Virus record (IMG/VR): IMGVR_UViG_3300048835_001034
Location: 1-38,065 of that record
Source of the DNA: a virus
Taxonomy: Duplodnaviria; Caudoviricetes
Strand: one strand, 5' to 3'
DNA: 38,065 nt
Part shown: piece by piece, positions 13,168 through 38,065 of the stretch
Layout of the letters: the number at the start of each line of letters is the position of its first letter
How positions within the stretch are numbered: position 1 is the stretch's first letter
The notes under the pieces: generated by a model
What the model was told of the DNA's origin: nothing
Seen by the model: only the letters and a program-made list of their open reading frames with translations
The model's database searches: none
Made by a program: the position numbers and the translations under genes

Positions 13168-14577
13168 ATGAGCCGCCGCAGGAAACCGCACCACCGCGCC
13201 GCCCCGACTGCGGAGGCCTTCGCAGAACCGCCCCGCCGGAACCTTCCGGCCGAGGCGCGGTCGCTCATCGCCAACGCGGCGAACGACATCACCATCCCCT
13301 ACTACAGCGGGGTGCTCCAGCACGCCGACGACACGCTGATCCAGCAGGGCGGCGGCAAGGGGCTGGCGATCTACGACGAGATCGAGCGTGACACCCACGC
13401 CTTCTCGATGCTGCAGAAGCGCCGCAAGGCGCTCGTTTCCCGCGCCTGGGAGGTCGAACCCGGGGGGGCCCGCGCGATCGACAAGGAGGCGGCCGATCTC
13501 GTCGAAGGGGTCCTCCGCAGCCTGCCCTTCGACGGGATCACCGAAGACCTGCTCGACGCCACGCTGAAGGGCTTCGCGGTCTCGGAGATCGAATGGGAGC
13601 GCGCGGGGGCAATGATCCGGCCGCGCCGGATCGTCGCCCACAACCAGCGCCGCTTCGTCTTCGACGAGGCGTGGCGGCCGCGGCTCCTGACCTGGACGCA
13701 GATGCGCGAGGGGATCGAGTTGCCGGAGCGGAAGTTCGTCGTCCACCGCGTCGGCGTGAAGGGCAACAACCCCTACGGGCTCGGCCTCGGCACGAGGCTC
13801 TTCTGGCCGGTGCTCTTCAAGCGCGAGGGCATCGCCTTCTGGCTCCATTTCCTGGAGAAATTCGCCGGGCCAACGATCGTCGGCAAGACGCCCTACGGCA
13901 CGCTCTCGGACGCGCAGCGCCAGCTCCTCAACACGCTCGTCTCGGCGCGCACGGCCTCGGCGATCACCGTGCCGATCGGCACCGACGTGGAGTTCCTGGA
14001 AGCCTCGCGGTCGGGCAGCGTCAGCTACGAGCAGTTCCTGGCCTACTGGGACCGGCAGATCTCGATCTGCACCACCGGCGAGACGCTGACCACCCAGGTC
14101 GGCGAGGCCGGCGGCAACCGGGCGCTCGGCGAGGTCCACCAGGAGCAGCTCGACACGCTCGCCGACAGCGACGGCGATCTCCTGACCGACAGCCTGCGCG
14201 AGAGCCTGGTGCGCTGGATCGTCGAATACAACCTGCCGGGGGCGGAGCTGCCGTCTGTCTGGCGGGTCAGGCCGAAGAACGAGCGCGCCGAGGCCGAGAC
14301 GCGGAAAACGAAGGCCGATGCCGCCGCCGCGCTCGACATGGCGATCGCGGCGATCGTGCGCCAGGCCGCGAAGTTCGAGGACGACGCGATTGCCCGCGAA
14401 TACATCGTCAGCTTCGACGTGACCGACCAGCTTTCCGACAAGACGATCGACGCGCTGGTGGCGGCGCGCCAGGCCTTCGTGTCGCCGGGATCCGACGCCG
14501 ACCCGGAGGCCGATCCCTTCGTCGCAGCCGGTCCGGTCCGGTTCTCTGGCCACGGGCTCAAAAAAAAACCTCTCTAG
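13168..14577 (+). CDS. Portal protein (Mu gp29/DUF935)
   Basis: IYDEIERDTHAFSMLQKRR, KGFAVSEIEW, NPYGLGLG, WLHFLEKFAGP, GETLTT, RALGEVH; ends LKKKPL* on an A9 run. Confidence 0.92.
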   Translation: MSRRRKPHHRAAPTAEAFAEPPRRNLPAEARSLIANAANDITIPYYSGVLQHADDTLIQQGGGKGLAIYDEIERDTHAFSMLQKRRKALVSRAWEVEPGGARAIDKEAADLVEGVLRSLPFDGITEDLLDATLKGFAVSEIEWERAGAMIRPRRIVAHNQRRFVFDEAWRPRLLTWTQMREGIELPERKFVVHRVGVKGNNPYGLGLGTRLFWPVLFKREGIAFWLHFLEKFAGPTIVGKTPYGTLSDAQRQLLNTLVSARTASAITVPIGTDVEFLEASRSGSVSYEQFLAYWDRQISICTTGETLTTQVGEAGGNRALGEVHQEQLDTLADSDGDLLTDSLRESLVRWIVEYNLPGAELPSVWRVRPKNERAEAETRKTKADAAAALDMAIAAIVRQAAKFEDDAIAREYIVSFDVTDQLSDKTIDALVAARQAFVSPGSDADPEADPFVAAGPVRFSGHGLKKKPL

Positions 14578-14615
14578 GCCGGCACGTCTGCTTCGCCGAT
14601 CCTGACGGGCCGGTC
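14560..14615 (+). promoter_or_regulatory. Putative -1 frameshift/slippage signal joining portal to MuF
   Basis: A9 at 14560-14568 (A AAA AAA in portal frame), 8-nt spacer, hairpin GGCCGGC-A-CGTC 14577-14588/GACG-G-GCCGGTC 14604-14615; -1 frame is open to 16136. Confidence 0.7.
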
Positions 14616-16136
14616 GAGCGGATCACCGATCAGGCGGTCCGGGCGGCCGAGCGGCACTTCACCCGCCGCATCGCCGCGGTCCGCGAGGCGATCACCGGTG
14701 CGGGAGGCTATGAGGCGGCGGGCCGGGCGCTTCTCGAACTGGCGGCGCGGTGGACGCCGGACGCGCTCGCGCACCTCCTCGGTGACGCGATGGAACTGGC
14801 GGCCTGGGCGGGTCGGGAGGCGGTCTTCGTCGAGAGCGGCATTCCTTCTTTCGCCGAGGCCGATTTCGACAGCCCCGAGTTCCGCGAGCAGATCGATTAC
14901 CTGCGCCAGAAGCGGCCGAAGCCGACGAAGGTCTGGACGGACGCGATGGCGGGCGACCACGACCGTCTCTTCGTCGTGGCCGGGGCGACAGACACGGCGA
15001 TGCTGGAGGAGTTCCACGCCGCCGTCATCGAGGCCGGCCGGACCCGGGACTTCGAGGCCTTCGCCAGGGACTTCGACCGCATCGTCGAGAAATACGGCTG
15101 GTCCTACAACGGCGGGCGGGAGTGGCGCATCCGCACGATCTTCAACACCAACATCCGCACCAGCCACATGGCCGGACGGCTCAGGCAGATGCGCGACCCC
15201 GAGGTGGTGAAGCTCCTGCCCTGGTGGCAGTACATCCATGCCGACACGCGGGTGCCGCTCAACCCCCGGCCCGAACACGTGGCCTGGGATGGGCTGGTGC
15301 TGGCCTGGGACGATCCCTGGTGGGACACGCATTTCCCGCCAAACGACTGGCTCTGTTCATGCGGGGTGCGGACGCTGTCGGACGCGCAGCTGAAGCGGCT
15401 CGGCAAGTCCGGCCCCGACAAGGCGCCGGCCCTGAACCGCAAGCCCTTCACCCACAAGGCGAGCGGCCAGACGGTGATGCTGCCCGAGGGGATCGGCTTC
15501 GGCTGGGATCACATGCCGGGCGATCTCTGGGAGCGCGGGCTCGTGCCCTCGGCGCTCATCGACGACCCGCTGGCGACGCGGATCGGCGACATCAAGGGCC
15601 AGCACCAGGTGTCGATCACGGAGCCGGTGCCGATGGAGGAGATGATCACGAGAGCCAGGCCGTTCACGTCGGCAAGGATGGACCCGGGCCTTCCGATCGA
15701 AGCCTATGTCGAGGCGTTCCTGAAGCCGTTCGGAGCCGGGCTGGACGAAGCGACGCTCTGGGAGGACGCGGCGGGAGCACGGCTTCCGATTTCCGACCTG
15801 TTGTTCCGGCGCCCCGACGGCAGCTGGAAGGGCGACAAGCGCGGTCACGGCGATCACGCGCCGCTCCTGGCCGAAGCCATCATGGACCCGGATGAAATCT
15901 GGCTCGGCGTCCGCGAGGTGCCGGTCGACGAGGAGCGCTACCCTGGCGTCATGCAGCACATGCTCACAAGGCGCTACATCCGCGTCGCCCCGGAGAACGG
16001 GGTCTTCGCTCTTTTCGAGATGGGCAGGCGGAACTGGCTCGGCGTCACCGGCTATGCGCCCCTGTCCCGCCGCAAACCGGACTTCAGCCATCTCGACCGG
16101 CAGCGCGTCGGCAAGCTGATATGGTGGAGAAAATAG
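14568..16136 (+). CDS. MuF (gp30) head morphogenesis protein with C-terminal PBECR2-like nuclease domain; start by frameshift or at ATG 14790
   Basis: MuF motifs HDRLFVVAGA, IFNTNIRTSHMAGR, RPEHVAWDG...DDPWWDTHFPPNDWLCSC; C-terminal LLAEAIMDPDEIW...RRYIR...WLGVTGY...RVGKLIWWR. Confidence 0.88.
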   Translation, partial: TSLGRHVCFADPDGPVERITDQAVRAAERHFTRRIAAVREAITGAGGYEAAGRALLELAARWTPDALAHLLGDAMELAAWAGREAVFVESGIPSFAEADFDSPEFREQIDYLRQKRPKPTKVWTDAMAGDHDRLFVVAGATDTAMLEEFHAAVIEAGRTRDFEAFARDFDRIVEKYGWSYNGGREWRIRTIFNTNIRTSHMAGRLRQMRDPEVVKLLPWWQYIHADTRVPLNPRPEHVAWDGLVLAWDDPWWDTHFPPNDWLCSCGVRTLSDAQLKRLGKSGPDKAPALNRKPFTHKASGQTVMLPEGIGFGWDHMPGDLWERGLVPSALIDDPLATRIGDIKGQHQVSITEPVPMEEMITRARPFTSARMDPGLPIEAYVEAFLKPFGAGLDEATLWEDAAGARLPISDLLFRRPDGSWKGDKRGHGDHAPLLAEAIMDPDEIWLGVREVPVDEERYPGVMQHMLTRRYIRVAPENGVFALFEMGRRNWLGVTGYAPLSRRKPDFSHLDRQRVGKLIWWRK

Positions 16137-17029: not shown

Positions 17030-17073
17030 CGGACCCATGTCCGGACGCAACCGCCTGCGGGCTGTCGCATGGT
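17030..17073 (+). promoter_or_regulatory. Putative activator-dependent late promoter (head/tail operon)
   Basis: CGGAC-N4-GTCCG 17030-17043, ACCGCCTGC 17050-17058, -10-like CATGGT 17068-17073. Confidence 0.6.
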
Positions 17074-17101
17074 CGCTCCAGTCAATCACCTGGACGAGCA
17101 C

Positions 17102-18238
17102 ATGCCGGCGACAGAGCCCACCCGCGCCCGTATCGAAGTCTTCCGCCCCGGCACCTTCCGGCCGATGGGCGGCGAGCCGATCACCTATTCCGCGGCCGAC
17201 CTCAGGGCCATCGCCGACGCCTATGACGCGGAAGGGGCACCGGCCCCGGTTGTCGTCGGCCATCCGGAGGTCGATGCCCCGGCCTTCGGCTGGGTGAAGC
17301 GGTTCGACTTCGACGCCGGCGCGGGACGTCTCTTCGCCGAGCTCGACGAGATCGAGCCGCAGTTCGCCGAGATGGTGAAGGCGGGCCGCTTCCGGAAGGT
17401 CTCGATGGCGTTCTTCTCGCCTCAGGCCTCGCACAACCCCGTGCCCGGCACCTGGTATCCCAAGCACGTGGGCTTCCTCGGTGCGGCCGCGCCAGCGGTC
17501 AGCGGCCTGAAGCCGGCGCGCTTCGCGGGCGAGGCCGATGTGATGTTCGAGGCGGCCTTCGGCGACCGTGGGCTCGAGGAGACCGCGTCGATCCTGCGCC
17601 TGATGCGCGACTTCTTCATCGAAAAGTTCGGGCTCGAGGAGGCCGAGAAGGCCCTTCCGTCGTGGCGCATCGAATGGCTGGGCGAGATCGAGCCCGAGAA
17701 AAACCCGTCGGGCGCGGCCTTCGCGGCGCCCGTGAAACCCACTCCCACCCCCGCTGAAGAGGACCCCGCCGTGACCAACAACGATCCGGCCGCCGATCCG
17801 GCCTTCGCCGCGCGCGAGGCCGAAATCGCCGAGCGCGAGGGGCGCATCGCCGCCCGAGAAGCCCAGCTCGCCCATGCCGACAACCTGGCCTTCGCCGAAA
17901 GGCTTGTCACCGAGGGCCGGCTCCTGCCCGCCTCGAAGGACAGGGCCGTGAGCCTTCTCGACGCGCTGCCGGGCGAGGCGACGGTCGGCTTCGCCGAAGG
18001 CGGCGAGAAGGTCAGCCCGGCCCGGGTGCTGCGCGAGATCCTCGAAGCCCAGCCCAAGGTCGTGAGCTTCGGCAGGACCGACCTGCCCGAGGGCGGCGAG
18101 GGCGCGCGCACCGCGACGTTCTCGGCCGATGGCAAGCCGGTCGATCCCGCCGGGCTCGAGATCCACACGAAGGCGCTCGACTACCAGCGCCAGCACCCCG
18201 GCACGGCCTATCTCGACGCCGTCCGCGCCGTCTCCTGA
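17102..18238 (+). CDS. Prohead protease/scaffold (Mu gpI-like)
   Basis: IEVFRPGTF, APVVVGHP...PAFGWV, GRFRKVSMAFF, HVGFLGAAAPAVSGL; helical C-terminus. Confidence 0.9.
   Translation: MPATEPTRARIEVFRPGTFRPMGGEPITYSAADLRAIADAYDAEGAPAPVVVGHPEVDAPAFGWVKRFDFDAGAGRLFAELDEIEPQFAEMVKAGRFRKVSMAFFSPQASHNPVPGTWYPKHVGFLGAAAPAVSGLKPARFAGEADVMFEAAFGDRGLEETASILRLMRDFFIEKFGLEEAEKALPSWRIEWLGEIEPEKNPSGAAFAAPVKPTPTPAEEDPAVTNNDPAADPAFAAREAEIAEREGRIAAREAQLAHADNLAFAERLVTEGRLLPASKDRAVSLLDALPGEATVGFAEGGEKVSPARVLREILEAQPKVVSFGRTDLPEGGEGARTATFSADGKPVDPAGLEIHTKALDYQRQHPGTAYLDAVRAVS
17771..18238 (+). CDS. Nested in-frame scaffold protein (Mu gpZ-like)
   Basis: GAGGA 17759-17763 then in-frame GTG 17771 after a Pro-rich linker; coiled coil AAREAEIAEREGRIAAREAQ. 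Confidence 0.6.
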   Translation: MTNNDPAADPAFAAREAEIAEREGRIAAREAQLAHADNLAFAERLVTEGRLLPASKDRAVSLLDALPGEATVGFAEGGEKVSPARVLREILEAQPKVVSFGRTDLPEGGEGARTATFSADGKPVDPAGLEIHTKALDYQRQHPGTAYLDAVRAVS

Positions 18239-22443: not shown

Positions 22444-22803
22444 ATGTTCAGGGTGATCGAGGAGCCGCAGTTCGTCGAGGACGTGGCGGTGGAGGTTCCG
22501 GACGGGACCGGCTGGCGGCCGGAGGTGCTCAGGACCCGGTTCCGCGCGCTGAAGGTCTCGGACATCGACACGCTGAACGAGGATGGCGGCGCGGTTGCCG
22601 TTCTCGACCGTGCGGTCGTCGATTTCGAGGACCTGGCCGACGAGGCCGGCAAGCCTGTGCCCGGCGACGGCGAGTGGCGGGCGCGGCTCCTGGAATACCC
22701 GTTCATCCGCGTCGCACTGATCCGCGCCTACTATGCCGCCCAGTCGGGGCTCCGCTCGGGAAACTCCGCGCCTTCGGCCGCGCCTGGGCGCGGGGCGAGC
22801 TGA
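22444..22803 (+). CDS. Tail assembly chaperone (lambda G analogue)
   Basis: Between tube and tape measure; slippery G GGA AAC at 22758-22764. Confidence 0.82.
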   Translation: MFRVIEEPQFVEDVAVEVPDGTGWRPEVLRTRFRALKVSDIDTLNEDGGAVAVLDRAVVDFEDLADEAGKPVPGDGEWRARLLEYPFIRVALIRAYYAAQSGLRSGNSAPSAAPGRGAS

Positions 22804-33088: not shown

Positions 33089-33813
33089 TGCTGCTTTTCC
33101 CCACGCCATATGTCCTGACCGGTGCGCCGCCGCCTGCGCTGGCGGGATACGACACCCGGACCGTCTTCAAGGACACGGCCAGCCAGCAGGCCTACGGCGG
33201 CGCCGGCGTCTGGGACTATGCGGTGGTGGCCGGCGAGTTGATCGCCATCTCGATGCACGCCGAGGGCAACGCGACGATCATCAACCCCACCACCTTCACG
33301 CTCTCGCTCGGCGGCAGCGCCATGACGCGAAAGAACGCATCGGCGACGACAAGCTCGGGTGTGTTTCCGGGATCGGCCGGGTTCTGGATCATCGCGCCTT
33401 CCACCGGCACGCTTGCGCTCGCGGCGGACGTGGGCGTCGCGGCACGGGCCTGCGCGCTGGTGGCGCGGCGGATCACCGGATTTGACGCGACAACGCCCCT
33501 CGGCGGATCGGATGCGCCATCGAAGCTCAACGCCGACGCCGCGACCCTGCCCGGTTCCGCCATGACGACGGGGCGTGCCGGCAACGTGATCCTGGCAGAT
33601 GCCTGCACCAAGGCCGGCACGATCACCTCGGCCACCTCCACCACACTTGACGGAATGGGCCACGACACGACCGGCGCCGACACGATCTCGAACCTCGGGC
33701 TGGGCTTCGGCCAGAAGCTGATGCCGTCGATCGGCAGCATCACCCCGGACTGGACCTTCGATGTAGCCGGCCGCATGTCGGCCTCCGTGATGGAAATCAA
33801 CGTGGCGCCATGA
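33088..33813 (+). CDS. Putative fibre-tip adhesin (241 aa)
   Basis: TAATG coupling to the fibre gene; beta-rich, Gly/Ala/Thr-rich. Confidence 0.6.
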   Translation: MLLFPTPYVLTGAPPPALAGYDTRTVFKDTASQQAYGGAGVWDYAVVAGELIAISMHAEGNATIINPTTFTLSLGGSAMTRKNASATTSSGVFPGSAGFWIIAPSTGTLALAADVGVAARACALVARRITGFDATTPLGGSDAPSKLNADAATLPGSAMTTGRAGNVILADACTKAGTITSATSTTLDGMGHDTTGADTISNLGLGFGQKLMPSIGSITPDWTFDVAGRMSASVMEINVAP

Positions 33814-36800
33814 CCATAGTTTATCAGCACCCGACCGCCGGCCAGATCATCATCGGGGCGAACAAGGGCGCCTCCCGGCGCGTGCCGAAGCCAGCCGGGA
33901 TTGCGCCGGGCGCCGCCGGGTCGATCCCCGACCAGGTCATCACCCAGGGCGCGGGCTCCGTGCAGATCGCCGTGGCGGGATATTTCACCGGCACCGCGCT
34001 CACCTTCGCGCTCCAGGCTGCGGTGACGGGCGTCTCGCTCGCGGGCTCGACGCTGACGATCTCGGACGCCTCGGTCCTCGCCGCGGCCACGGTCACCGTC
34101 GTCGCCTCCAGCGCCTTCGGGCCAAGCGCGACCCAGACCTTCAGCCGCACGGTCAATGCGCCCGCCGCCGGCGGCACGATCACGATCAATCCCTTCGTGC
34201 GTGACGAGGTGGTCTTCGATCTCGGCACCTCTGTCGGCGATCCGGAAGCGCAGGTGCCGCTCTCGGGCACCGCCGGTCCGGGCGAGGTGATCCAGGCGCG
34301 CGCCGTCTCGCTCGACGACTTCGGCCTCACCTCGACCGCGTGGCGGGACGTGGCCACCGCGAACGGCGTCGGGAACTGGTCGGGGGCACTGGCCTTCACC
34401 TCGATCTCGAACTCGCGGTTCAGCGCCGAGGTCCGGCTGAAGGCAGCGCCCGCCACGACGGCGACGGGGACAAGGACCTTCTGCGTCGGCCATGTGGCGA
34501 TCGACATCGGCCAGTCCGAGCGCTACCGGGTGCGCGAGGTCTACTTCTCGCAGACCACCAGCCCGGAGGCCATCATCGGCATCGCCGAGGCGGTCCAGCA
34601 GCTTGCCGCGCCCTATCGGGTGGGCAGGGTCACGCCGACGGCACAGCAGCCCTTCACGGTGGGCGTGGACACGCTCCCGACCGGTCTCACACGGTCTGGC
34701 AACCAGGTCACTGTCAACAAGAGCACCTACGACGGTGCGCCTCTGCAGCACTGGTATTTCCCTGATCACCGCCTGGAAATGGGCGACAGCCGCTTCGTCA
34801 TGCGGCGCTGCAAGATGGAGGTCGTCAGCGACCTGACGCTGCCCTACTTCCTCAACAACCTCAACGGCGGCGGCTTCAAGCTGATCGCCCACAACGACTT
34901 CGTCGCCAAGCCGGGCGGGCTCTCCTTCAGCGCCTTCATGAAGGAGGAGTATAGCGGCACGGGCCTGAACCTCGTGGTGCCGGACATGAACTGGATGATC
35001 CGGAACTTCTTCTCCGGATCGACCGGCGACCTGATCAAGGCAGGTCGCGGCTACTACATGGAGAACACGTTCGAGTGGACCTGGAACATTCCCGGCAACC
35101 CGGCCGCATGGGCTGCCGGCACGACCTACGCCGCGGGCGATTTCGTCAAATACAACAACAATTACTTCCGGTCGGAGTTGTCGGGGAACCTCGGCAACAC
35201 CCCGCCGTCGGGCCAGACAGACAGCACCTACTGGAAGTCGTGGAACCCGCATTCGGACGGCTTCAACCCCCAGCACGGCGTCTCCGGCCCGCTGGTGATC
35301 GCCCGCAACCTGATCAAGGCCGACTTCGCCCGCACCGCCGGCAATCTGCTCGATGGTGCGAACAACGTCCTCTATCGCGGCAACCGCGATCCTGCCCATC
35401 TGGCGAACAACAACCGCATGGACCTGGTCCTTGTCGAGGAGAACGTCGTGGTCCGGGCGCCGACCTCGACCTCCTATGCGATCCAGACCGAGGGAGGCGC
35501 CAACGTCGTGCCGCCGGTGATCCGGGGCAACCGCATCACCCCCGGCGCCTCCGGCAACCAAGGGTTCATCCATGCGGGCACGATCCAGCCGGGCACCGAA
35601 TGGACCGACAATCGCAGGCTCACCGACGAAAGCCTGATCGCCCTGCCGACCAACTGTGTCGCGGGCACCTACACGCCCTCGACCGAGAAGGCGGTGCAGT
35701 TCGCGAGCCACGACGACGCGACGATCAATGCCGTCGCCTATGTCAACACCGCCCATCGGCCGACCGCCGGTGTTGCCGCGATGGCGAACGGCTTCATTTC
35801 CGAATTCCCCGGCCGCCGCTTCGCGGTGGGCTCCGCCACCAAGTCGGGAACGACGCTCTCCTGGCTCTGCGATGACAACGCGACCGCGCGACAGATGGCC
35901 CATTACATCGCCTTCGTCGATCACCTCTGCCCGCACGGCACCCAGCCGGGCACGATCACCCACTACTGGCAGGCCGGCGATCAGGCTCTCGGCAACAATT
36001 ACGCCGACAACATCCTGCCGATGCTGACCGGCAAGTATCTCGACGGCTCGCCGGTCACGCTGCCGGCGAACCTCGGCCAGCGCACGATCAACCGGACCCT
36101 CGCCGAGCGCCACGCGCCCTGGACGCGCACCCGCATTCTCCTCTGCGGCCCAGGCACCCGCTGCCCGGAGAGCACAAGCGGCGTGGCCAACAACATGGCA
36201 AATGCCGACAAGAAGACCGACAACAGCCAGCTCGCGTCGATGGTCAACTACCAGCGCATCCGTGCCGAATACCGGATCATGGTCGCGGCCGTTGGTGGGC
36301 AGGCCGTCCACCCCTTCGTCGGCGTGCAGCCCCTGGCGCACTACATGGCCTATGCCGATGGCGTCCACCCCTCCGACCACGTGGACGGCCTGCCCACGAT
36401 GGGCCGCTACATCGCGCTGGAAAGCCTGCAAGGGCTCGGGCTCATCCCCGATCTCAAGGTGACGTTCGACCAGAGCGCCTTCGCGGCGAACGGCTCCTAT
36501 GCCGAGTTCTGGTCCTCGGCCGGTCCGGTCACGACAGCACGGCGCAAGCGCGGTCTCGCCGCGATCCCGGCGACCTGGCCGCACCGGACCGAGGTCTTCT
36601 CCTGGGAGATCGGCGACACCCAGGCAGCGGCCGTCCCCGCCCAGAGCGCCACGATCCAGGCCGGCCGCGTCCGGGTGCTGCCGATCTCCGGCGCCTTCGC
36701 CAACGGCCAGAAGTTCGCCTTCGGCCGGGGCGGCGCCAGCGGCGTCATGCGTCCGGTCGAGGACAGCGCCGACCGCTACGACCTCAACTACCCCGGTGTC

Positions 36801-36884
36801 GATCTCGGCTTCTACAAGCTCGACATCGTGCCGATCGACCCCATGCCCACCGCGCCGATCCTGACCGCGGCCGGCATCACCTGA
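33810..36884 (+). CDS. Large tailspike-like protein: Ig-like + SGNH esterase + beta-helix + CBM5/12-like module (1024 aa)
   Basis: IGQSE, ATKSGT, HYWQAGD and DGVHP SGNH-type blocks; WAAGTTYAAGDFVKYNNNYF...YWK; Asn-ladder strands. Confidence 0.75.
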   Translation: MTIVYQHPTAGQIIIGANKGASRRVPKPAGIAPGAAGSIPDQVITQGAGSVQIAVAGYFTGTALTFALQAAVTGVSLAGSTLTISDASVLAAATVTVVASSAFGPSATQTFSRTVNAPAAGGTITINPFVRDEVVFDLGTSVGDPEAQVPLSGTAGPGEVIQARAVSLDDFGLTSTAWRDVATANGVGNWSGALAFTSISNSRFSAEVRLKAAPATTATGTRTFCVGHVAIDIGQSERYRVREVYFSQTTSPEAIIGIAEAVQQLAAPYRVGRVTPTAQQPFTVGVDTLPTGLTRSGNQVTVNKSTYDGAPLQHWYFPDHRLEMGDSRFVMRRCKMEVVSDLTLPYFLNNLNGGGFKLIAHNDFVAKPGGLSFSAFMKEEYSGTGLNLVVPDMNWMIRNFFSGSTGDLIKAGRGYYMENTFEWTWNIPGNPAAWAAGTTYAAGDFVKYNNNYFRSELSGNLGNTPPSGQTDSTYWKSWNPHSDGFNPQHGVSGPLVIARNLIKADFARTAGNLLDGANNVLYRGNRDPAHLANNNRMDLVLVEENVVVRAPTSTSYAIQTEGGANVVPPVIRGNRITPGASGNQGFIHAGTIQPGTEWTDNRRLTDESLIALPTNCVAGTYTPSTEKAVQFASHDDATINAVAYVNTAHRPTAGVAAMANGFISEFPGRRFAVGSATKSGTTLSWLCDDNATARQMAHYIAFVDHLCPHGTQPGTITHYWQAGDQALGNNYADNILPMLTGKYLDGSPVTLPANLGQRTINRTLAERHAPWTRTRILLCGPGTRCPESTSGVANNMANADKKTDNSQLASMVNYQRIRAEYRIMVAAVGGQAVHPFVGVQPLAHYMAYADGVHPSDHVDGLPTMGRYIALESLQGLGLIPDLKVTFDQSAFAANGSYAEFWSSAGPVTTARRKRGLAAIPATWPHRTEVFSWEIGDTQAAAVPAQSATIQAGRVRVLPISGAFANGQKFAFGRGGASGVMRPVEDSADRYDLNYPGVDLGFYKLDIVPIDPMPTAPILTAAGIT

Positions 36885-36895
36885 CGGAGAACTCC

Positions 36896-38065
36896 ATGAA
36901 CGACCAGGACTTCCTGTTTTTCGCGAAATCGCGCCGCGCCGCGCTCATGAACCAGATCGACGACATCATCGACGAGATCAAGGCCTGTGACGCGACGATC
37001 GCTGAACTGATGATCGAGACGCCCTCGCCCGAGCCGACGCCCGAACCTCAGCCGGAACCCACCCCGGAACCGACCCCAGAGCCGCAGCCGGAACCCACCC
37101 CTGTTCCGGCACCGACCCCGACCCCGGTCCCGGCGCAGCCGAAGCCCCCCGCCACCGCCTATGACGCGGTGGCGGCGCTGAAGGACAAGGTGACGGAGGT
37201 CAAGCACTCGTCCGGCCACATGGTCACGCGGACGCTCGTCGACGTCGACGCGCTGCCGGCGATCGACAGGGGCGCCGCGATCCCGGCCAATGTCACGGTG
37301 ACCGCGACCGAATGCATCCTGACCGGAAAGTTCGTCGGCGATTTCCGGATGCACATCGGCGACCGCCAGCTCACTCTGGCCCCCGGCGCCGACGTGGGCC
37401 TGGTGCATGTCTACGGCCGCGCGCCGAAGGGCAGGACGGCCGGGGTCGCGATCAAGACCGGCGCCCGGCTGCGGTCGCTGAACGGAACCATCCTCGACGG
37501 GTCGCTCGGCATCTCGAAGGCGATCCACCAGGATCATTCCGGCACCGGGCCGGGTGCGCGCATCGGCTCGCTCGACGAGGTGGTGGACTGCCAGTTCATC
37601 AACCAGCAGGGCGACGGCCCGAAGCTCGCCGGCAGCGAATACGGCCCCTGCCGGATCGAGAGGACCCTCTTCGGCGAGCAGGAACTCGGCTACGCCGCCG
37701 CCCACTATGACCAGATGACGATCATGGCGGCGCTGAACGGCCTCGCGGTCCGGGAATGCTACTTTGACAACGACACCGACACCGACACGGTGGGCGTGAA
37801 CAACTGGATGCAGTTCGCCCCCTACTGGCCCGGCGCGCTCTACGGCGACATCGATGTGACGGGCTGCATCTTCGTGCACCGCAACGACCGGTCCTTCGGT
37901 TTCGCCAAGGGCTCGAAGTACCCGGGCACCTGGAGCGGCAGGATCAGGATCAACCACAGCTGGTTCGACAAGGCCGGCGGGGCGAAGAAGATCTTCTACC
38001 AGGGGCGCAACTTCACGGATGAGTGGATCGGCAACGTCGACCTCGCCACCGGCGCGATCCTCTGA
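36896..38065 (+). CDS. Protein with coiled N-terminus, Pro-rich linker and beta-helix-like domain (389 aa)
   Basis: SD GGAG; (PEPT/PEPQ)n linker; VVDCQF, IERTLF, VRECYF, VTGCIF, INHSWF repeats. Confidence 0.75.
   Translation: MNDQDFLFFAKSRRAALMNQIDDIIDEIKACDATIAELMIETPSPEPTPEPQPEPTPEPTPEPQPEPTPVPAPTPTPVPAQPKPPATAYDAVAALKDKVTEVKHSSGHMVTRTLVDVDALPAIDRGAAIPANVTVTATECILTGKFVGDFRMHIGDRQLTLAPGADVGLVHVYGRAPKGRTAGVAIKTGARLRSLNGTILDGSLGISKAIHQDHSGTGPGARIGSLDEVVDCQFINQQGDGPKLAGSEYGPCRIERTLFGEQELGYAAAHYDQMTIMAALNGLAVRECYFDNDTDTDTVGVNNWMQFAPYWPGALYGDIDVTGCIFVHRNDRSFGFAKGSKYPGTWSGRIRINHSWFDKAGGAKKIFYQGRNFTDEWIGNVDLATGAIL
37019..37150 (+). repeat. Degenerate coding tandem repeat (12-nt units, PEPT/PEPQ)
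   Basis: TPSPEPTPEPQPEPTPEPTPEPQPEPTPVPAPTPTPVPAQPKPP; CAGCCGGAACCCACCCC occurs twice. Confidence 0.8.

Follow-up and report, generated by a model that had tools for sequence, protein, structure and literature searches.

The stretch of DNA analysed here, which we call the window (38,065 nucleotides (nt), 69% GC), is the genome of a complete Mu-like transposable siphophage, and our subject is one short piece of it: a run of nine adenines (A9) at the very end of the portal gene, together with the second reading frame that opens there and encodes MuF and a predicted nuclease domain, PBECR2. The portal open reading frame (ORF) reads ...LKKKPL* at its C-terminus and is closed within a few nucleotides of the run, while the -1 frame continues for hundreds of codons. 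How, then, is the frame behind the portal gene read, and does this phage make one form of its portal protein or two? The features on which the argument turns, all on the plus strand, are the following.

13168-14577, plus strand: short portal ORF, 469 amino acids (aa), Mu gp29-like, without the usual helical C-terminal tail; the product of unslipped reading.
14556-14559, plus strand: GCTC on the 5' flank of the A9, retained irrespective of codon phase.
14560-14568, plus strand: the A9, proposed slip site and the sole A or T run of at least 6 in the window.
14568-16136, plus strand: -1 frame of 522 codons, comprising helical portal tail, linker, MuF and PBECR2 (open-frame reading and profile matches).
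14575-14577, plus strand: TAG ending the short portal, 6 nt past the A9.
14577-14615, plus strand: hairpin of 11 base pairs (bp) named in an earlier note on this DNA; unsupported as a conserved stimulator.
14603-14605, plus strand: TGA closing the third frame, 34 nt past the A9.
14610-14822, plus strand: helical portal-tail domain, shifted into the -1 frame (phrog_113 match); the same element ends ordinary portals.
14780-14792, plus strand: GGTGA and ATG 14790, the latter coding for a Met inside the tail helix; not conserved as a start.
15126-15368, plus strand: MuF (Phage_Mu_F) core, PF04233, -1-frame residues 187-267.
15714-16127, plus strand: PBECR2, predicted RNase-like, PF18810, -1-frame residues 383-520.

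The earlier note had singled out the run as the only one of its kind in the window and had read the -1 frame as open for 522 codons through MuF and a C-terminal domain; both readings were right, and the two domains now have Pfam matches. One added A, or one shift by -1, would join 467 portal codons to the 522 behind them, for a predicted fusion of 989 aa. We consider it very probable that the two products are both made, by programmed recoding, and we lean, with a good deal less assurance, towards a fuller reading in which the A9 is a conserved recoding site where likely slippage by RNA polymerase gives the 469-aa portal and the 989-aa fusion. What sequence comparison establishes is the run, its fixed length, two gene layouts that mirror each other, stops in both closed frames and the lack of a conserved separate start for MuF.

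Related loci were gathered using the portal and the -1 product, which gave 238 entries, and 143 were kept once those with identical junctions (57), partial portals (20), no MuF nearby (12), genes running off (3), portals broken early (2) or no hit (1) had been dropped. A second set, gathered from distant fusion proteins, contributed nine more run-bearing loci out of 77 examined (8 incomplete and 8 identical ones dropped). The first 143 consist of 71 split loci, in which the frame behind the portal lies at -1 past a run of at least eight A's, 18 in-frame fusions that also carry the run, 2 split loci in the +1 phase (A8 and A11), 45 loci with ordinary long portals and no run, and 7 with short portals and no run. 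The run-bearing loci number 100 with the window included, 94 of them with A9, 3 with A10, 2 with A8 and 1 with A11, and they are laid out as 77 split at -1, 21 fused and 2 split at +1; the loci are kin from which exact duplicates alone were removed, and counts over them are not independent trials. Both the A run and the -1 phase are conserved across the junctions of homologs. Elsewhere in the 751,873 bp of the first-set run-bearing loci (n = 91), only one other run of eight or more A's or T's occurs, so the run at the junction stands above chance, and none of the 45 ordinary long-portal loci has a run of at least eight at its junction.

A few records depart in length. L004 (A8) and L100 (A11), both in the +1 phase, and L085 (A8) have intact neighbouring genes (with a protease hit in two frames in L004), and they are either assembly errors or real length variants. 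The cultured phage RcapMu (JN190960, our L142) is 99.97% identical to L046 over 9,314 nt and reads TAC-A8 where L046 reads TC-A9, in the same phase; the TAC-A8 is possibly a sequencing error in the GenBank record.

The fused loci are the most instructive. They keep the run, with a -1-frame stop 1-29 nt past it in 21 of 21, and 17 of the 18 in-frame fusions of the first set carry A9, not A10. One and the same net event would therefore produce the fusion where the locus is split and the short portal where it is fused, and either layout would end with the same pair of products, short portal and ~990-aa fusion. In 71 database proteins with the fused portal-MuF-PBECR2 architecture, the junction holds KKK in 55, KK (in contexts fitting the other two phases) in 11 and neither in 5, compared with KKK in 1 of 426 control windows, and the in-frame fusion homologs measure 915-1011 aa. 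Together with the conserved A9 and phase, these proteins support the central claim of the earlier note, a programmed frame change that makes a ~990-aa portal-MuF-PBECR2 fusion beside the short portal. On a tree of the portal core (quick IQ-TREE, junction excluded) the fused label needs at least six changes, and close pairs of loci (L040/L054, L032/L030, L205/L058) are set apart by small indels on one side or the other of an A9 that is itself unchanged. The pattern argues for selection of both products. A second clade (L176, L245, L250, L251, L252, L255) has a full-length portal and places CTC-A9 after the tail, directly before MuF, in the -1 phase; no start codon precedes the MuF N-terminal motif there. 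This placement could be of independent origin or could be a moved site.

The mirror layouts also bear on how often the frame changes. A shift of 5% would put the share of fusion at 5% in one layout and at 95% in its mirror, which leaves two choices, a middling rate or a head that can accommodate widely differing ratios; given the flips between layouts, the slip rate is probably tens of percent. The suggestion that the fusion is a sub-stoichiometric effector becomes doubtful, since in the 21 mirror-image loci the ratio would be the other way round.

All three codon phases are represented at the start of the run (74, 8 and 18 of the 100 loci in phases 0, 1 and 2), and GCTC precedes it in 56 of 74, 5 of 8 and 6 of 18 loci of these phases, the preceding base being C or T in 100 of 100 and C standing at -3 in 95 of 100. 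Both non-fusion frames are closed no more than 50 nt past the run in 96 of 100 loci, and in phase-0 split loci a wobble T at a four-fold site, where it creates a stop, is found at 54 of 121 sites in the first 50 nt versus 310 of 3408 further on.

Might MuF simply have a start of its own? The segment ahead of ATG 14790 aligns with the C-terminal part of the portal profile phrog_113 (455-515, E 2.3e-5), and over the 68 split loci covered by a coding-constraint score, those open in the -1 frame, its third positions in that frame are the most variable (0.58 vs 0.37 and 0.30), while the other two frames hold stops in 68 of 68. By this measure the segment evolves as coding sequence in the -1 frame, which bears out the earlier impression that the ~70 codons before the ATG read as protein resembling a portal tail. 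An ATG with a word resembling a Shine-Dalgarno (SD) sequence stands before the MuF motif in 2 of the 60 split loci scored (11 of 71 being unscorable); no ATG, GTG or TTG precedes that motif in L001, whose portal is 90% identical to that of the window, or in L030; and the column of Met 14790 holds M in 32 of 68 loci and L in 27 of 68. The GGTGA from which a free MuF had been proposed is present, but a start there is not what these relatives keep. An internal start as the general route to MuF was considered and is rejected on the count of 2 in 60 and on the coding constraint upstream.

A broader form of the same idea, in which no fusion is made, the tail-MuF-PBECR2 protein arises separately by an internal start or by re-initiation and the A9 has some other job, can point to the GGTGA-ATG of the window, to run-less relatives that do start tail-MuF separately and to GenBank records that annotate a separate ORF. 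We think it very unlikely: besides the start-codon counts and the constraint just given, it leaves the run in 21 fused loci unexplained, and the annotator of RcapMu remarks on the poor ribosome-binding site of the MuF ORF. Similarly unlikely is phase variation at the level of DNA, with replication slippage toggling whole genomes between fusion and short portal. The few length variants (L004, L100, L085) and a protein, P0005, that resembles the product of one extra A are what it has in its favour, but A9 holds in 94 of 100 loci and in both layouts (though consensus assemblies hide variation within a population), the layout flips arise from indels outside the run, and an all-or-none state would leave split genomes without MuF. 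As for a true A10 misread in a constitutive fusion, homopolymers are error-prone and the reads of the window's own genome could not be checked (contigs from read sets X1-X5 held no piece identical across its A9); the -1 split is, however, common to 77 loci from isolates, metagenome-assembled genomes (MAGs) and metagenomes, genomic fusions carry A9 too, and contigs of relatives in two runs span the site with no run-length change listed. The mirror layout removes this reading, and the sequencing error that the earlier note had named as its own undoing is effectively excluded by the 77 split loci and the A9 in the fusions; what chance we leave it is negligible.

The harder choice is between the polymerase and the ribosome. 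Canonical bacterial -1 frameshifting, of the Escherichia coli dnaX type, uses an X_XXY_YYZ heptamer, an upstream SD-like stimulator and a 3' structure at fixed spacing. The heptamer is here, and the upstream SD and a conserved structure at fixed spacing are not: no SD-like word lies within 25 nt upstream of the run in any of 91 run-bearing loci, and the hairpin fares poorly on inspection. It exists and it folds, at -20.1 kcal/mol, but 32 of 200 shuffles fold as well (z = -1.05), and in 49 aligned rows (the window and 48 of the 54 phase-0 split loci, with L030, L031, L086, L095, L099 and L184 left out) it has one two-sided change versus 2.1 in shuffles, 488 of 500 shuffles scoring as high, with a consensus energy of -2.5 kcal/mol. 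The spacer between run and stem takes insertions of 3-12 nt in L018, L022, L038, L089 and L090, and neither phase-2 nor fused loci have a common 3' fold. Hairpin-stimulated -1 frameshifting, as first proposed for this site, loses its footing with the missing covariation and the variable spacer; of that observation as a whole, the site and the frames stand and the hairpin and SD are without meaning. Still, ribosomal -1 shifting or sliding on A_AAA_AAA, with or without a weak 3' hairpin, would give the same two products, a net -1 move sufficing for both layouts, and we hold it to be possible though rather unlikely. AAA is the rarer Lys codon (1181 vs 2788 AAG), split loci fold slightly better on the 3' side than controls (mean z -0.66 vs -0.26 and -0.32), the tail chaperone gene of this phage contains an ordinary heptamer, G_GGA_AAC, and reporters with nine A's showed 40% shifting with the step unresolved (PMC3711429). 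Such shifting, on the other hand, does not require early stops in the third frame, and no junction has A6, A7 or a different heptamer standing in for the run. The site has instead the marks of slippage at dnaX of Thermus: a homopolymer of ~9 nt, stops in both non-productive frames and independence of phase (the kinship of the loci weakens the last two). In Thermus the nine-base run, with stops in both non-zero frames, gives ~50% full-length product (PMC5009743). Because the length is fixed at nine rather than set by a 7-nt heptamer, and because there are three phases, stops in both frames, no SD and no covarying structure, slippage by RNA polymerase is favoured, and we judge it, by a modest preference, the main route; the two processes may both act.

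A number of points weigh against polymerase slippage or, more broadly, against the importance we give to the site, the kinship of the loci among them. An in-frame A_AAA_AAA is found in 99 of 100 loci and A_AAA_AAC in the remaining one, so ribosomal -1 shifting also fits every locus; wobble pairing would still allow the inner four pairs of the hairpin in 47-49 of 49 rows; on poly-A, a shift can arise at either step (PMC3711429); and in E. coli reporters poly(A) made the host RNA polymerase slip less than poly(T) did (PMC6260861). The stop in the third frame may have been inherited from a fused ancestor, and the +1 stop in fused loci is only weakly early (median p 0.26). Recombination among phages could inflate the number of layout flips. 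Finally, seven loci (L037, L042, L052, L053, L203, L300, L304) have no run and begin tail-MuF-PBECR2 at an ATGA or GTGA overlap, in what look like two or more losses of the slip site, with translational coupling in its place, and L242 and 5 of the 71 fused proteins are fused without the imprint of a run; the recoding system is dispensable in some lineages.

What would the fusion be for? Its MuF part matches PF04233 (E 4.9e-9, 37.4 bits vs a cut-off of 29.6), and also phrog_220, and lies directly downstream of the portal. The PBECR2 match to PF18810 is stronger (E 5.6e-26, 91.5 bits vs a cut-off of 27.1), with KRGH and GVTG as candidate motifs, judged by eye, in which the His is found in 7-8 of 21 aligned rows and Arg in most others. 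PBECR2 is a predicted RNase family, of which Mu's own MuF carries an inactive copy (PMC5512222), and nuclease activity in the window phage is a prediction from the family. Neither sequence nor fold search found a solved relative of the -1 product, whose model (predicted local distance difference test (pLDDT) 65, predicted template-modelling score (pTM) 0.40) has three helices at residues 15-85. A natural fusion, P0001, was modelled (pLDDT 79, pTM 0.41): its KKK falls within a disordered linker (441-475), after which come the helical tail (478-561), another linker (559-573) and MuF; a fold search with the fusion model returned portals only. The last 124 residues of Mu gp29 are absent from the virion structure, an absence that its authors ascribe to protease I (PMC11915804), and the MuF of SPP1, gp7, is bound to the portal at 1-2 copies per capsid (PMC5576092). 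A gene for such a protease lies nearby in the window.

17069-18238, plus strand: prohead protease/scaffold gene, 389 aa (phrog_976 head maturation protease, E 1e-109; Mu-like_Pro).

A motif picked by eye, F-[A/S]-[E/D/A/G], flanks the portal tail in the window (14542-14550, 14592-14600, 14850-14858) and precedes the tail in most ordinary portals; there are 8 copies in the protease/scaffold ORF and none in the capsid or gpG. We regard it as a candidate site for the prohead protease, and the protease/scaffold gene as the candidate for the enzyme that would cut the fusion; the available parts of PMC3447690 and PMC11445458 add nothing on portal cleavage. The likely role of the fusion is to load MuF-PBECR2 into the procapsid and then release it, rather than lasting display on the ring, and the earlier idea of an effector fixed on the portal ring is doubtful with Mu's last 124 portal residues missing from its virion structure.

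The sequence of events that we propose would run as follows. RNA polymerase would slip on the A9 at the end of the portal gene and add A's; messages with one extra A would give the 989-aa portal-tail-MuF-PBECR2 fusion, and messages unslipped or with two extra A's the short portal. By assembling with the short subunits in the 12-mer portal ring, the fusion would bring MuF-PBECR2 inside the procapsid. There the two disordered linkers are probably cut by the prohead protease, in the way proposed for the Mu gp29 tail, and MuF-PBECR2 would be left as an internal head protein for injection. On the later cleavage we are evenly divided. More speculative is the thought that the phage uses a trick like that of Gag and Gag-Pol, in which A9 stutter gives a near-even mix of short and long portals, a mixed 12-mer ring carries several copies of MuF-PBECR2, and the protease frees them at F-[A/S]-[E/D] linkers; the frame would then flip between genomes because the slip rate is about one half, and the site could sit at either of two junction points. 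We offer this only tentatively.

The wider setting is that of a Mu-like phage. The window has genes for a transposase, a MuB-like transposition protein, Gam, a late activator, an endolysin, terminase, portal, MuF, gpG, protease/scaffold, capsid and tail. Portal_Mu (PF06074) matches portal residues 67-387 (E 1.1e-99), and the gene sits between terminase and MuF; its relatives in the PDB are the Mu and JBD30 portals, and the portals most similar to it come from Rhodobacterales genomes (91% for an Albidovulum MAG) and from the phages RcapMu, RcWaterboi and RR1-B. Ordinary related portals are ~500-530 aa long and terminate in the helical tail. From the MuF stop (16136) to gpG (16243) there are 106 nt with no separate ORF of at least 60 aa, which leaves no space behind PBECR2 for the immunity gene that follows the toxin domain in MuF polymorphic toxins (PMC5576092). 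A promoter and terminator scan gave nothing at the portal-MuF junction. Further along, the G_GGA_AAC heptamer (22758-22764) lies in frame near the end of a 119-aa ORF (22444-22803), with a DUF1799 frame open behind it and ahead of the tape-measure gene, an ordinary -1 site of the tail-chaperone G/GT type. In the window's right part, a 1024-aa ORF (33810-36884) has only a weak carbohydrate-binding match and is followed by a Pro/Glu-repeat ORF (36896-38065); neither was assigned to a family.

If the proposal is true, the portal joins a short list of recoded virion proteins, as a likely phage case of productive RNA-polymerase slippage. Recoding would explain the "short" portals of these Mu-like prophages and their MuF genes without a good start, and split and fused records alike would be mis-annotated, each with one product missing. 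RcapMu in Rhodobacter capsulatus SB1003 offers a harmless, cultured system for MuF head entry, copy number and mixed portal rings, and nature supplies the controls: split loci, fused loci with the run, fused loci without it and loci with a separate start.

How much of this was already known? A frameshift at the junction is already guessed at in the RcapMu record, and the A9 site, its conservation and the mirror layout are without a precedent that we found. No account of these three turned up in the literature searched, which did not take in most subscription papers or, among sources that may mention the site, the 2011 paper on RcapMu, a 2011 survey of disrupted ORFs and one supplement of PMC3711429. 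Term look-ups found the site undescribed in PMC3711429, PMC5576092, PMC5512222, PMC7302621, PMC10783043, bioRxiv 2021.08.04.455094 and the available part of PMC5009743, a review in whose first 300,000 characters the word "portal" does not occur; "frameshift" is absent from the main text of PMC5512222.

The nearest of the known systems is RcapMu itself (JN190960, RcapMu36/37), an orthologous locus with 69% portal identity, whose GenBank note reads [quoted passage not shown] That is a one-line guess in the +1 direction, and unlike the present proposal it gives no site, mechanism or conservation. The portal-MuF-PBECR fusions of Iyer et al. 2017 (PMC5512222), for which packaging and injection of PBECR were proposed, share the domain architecture, as do the portal-MuF fusions of Microbacterium phages (PMC7302621); the available parts of both papers treat these as plain fusions, whereas most fusions here keep the slip site and a near -1 stop. 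Mu gp29/gp30 and SPP1 gp6/gp7 likewise place MuF after the portal, but there the two genes are separate, every portal subunit carries the tail and no slip site is present. Recoding sets the ratio of a short to an extended virion protein in lambda G/GT, in the capsid extensions of T7 and T3 and in the capsid and tail of a Listeria phage (PMC5009743), although the sites there are ribosomal heptamers and lie in genes for capsid, tail or chaperone. In mechanism, the closest likeness is to dnaX of Thermus thermophilus, which also has a nine-base run, stops in both non-zero frames, a long and a short product, and known layouts with one ORF and with two (PMC5009743, PMC3711429). The difference is that dnaX encodes part of a cellular clamp loader and its slippage was shown by experiment, whereas ours is a phage portal, known from sequence, whose layout has flipped repeatedly within one clade.

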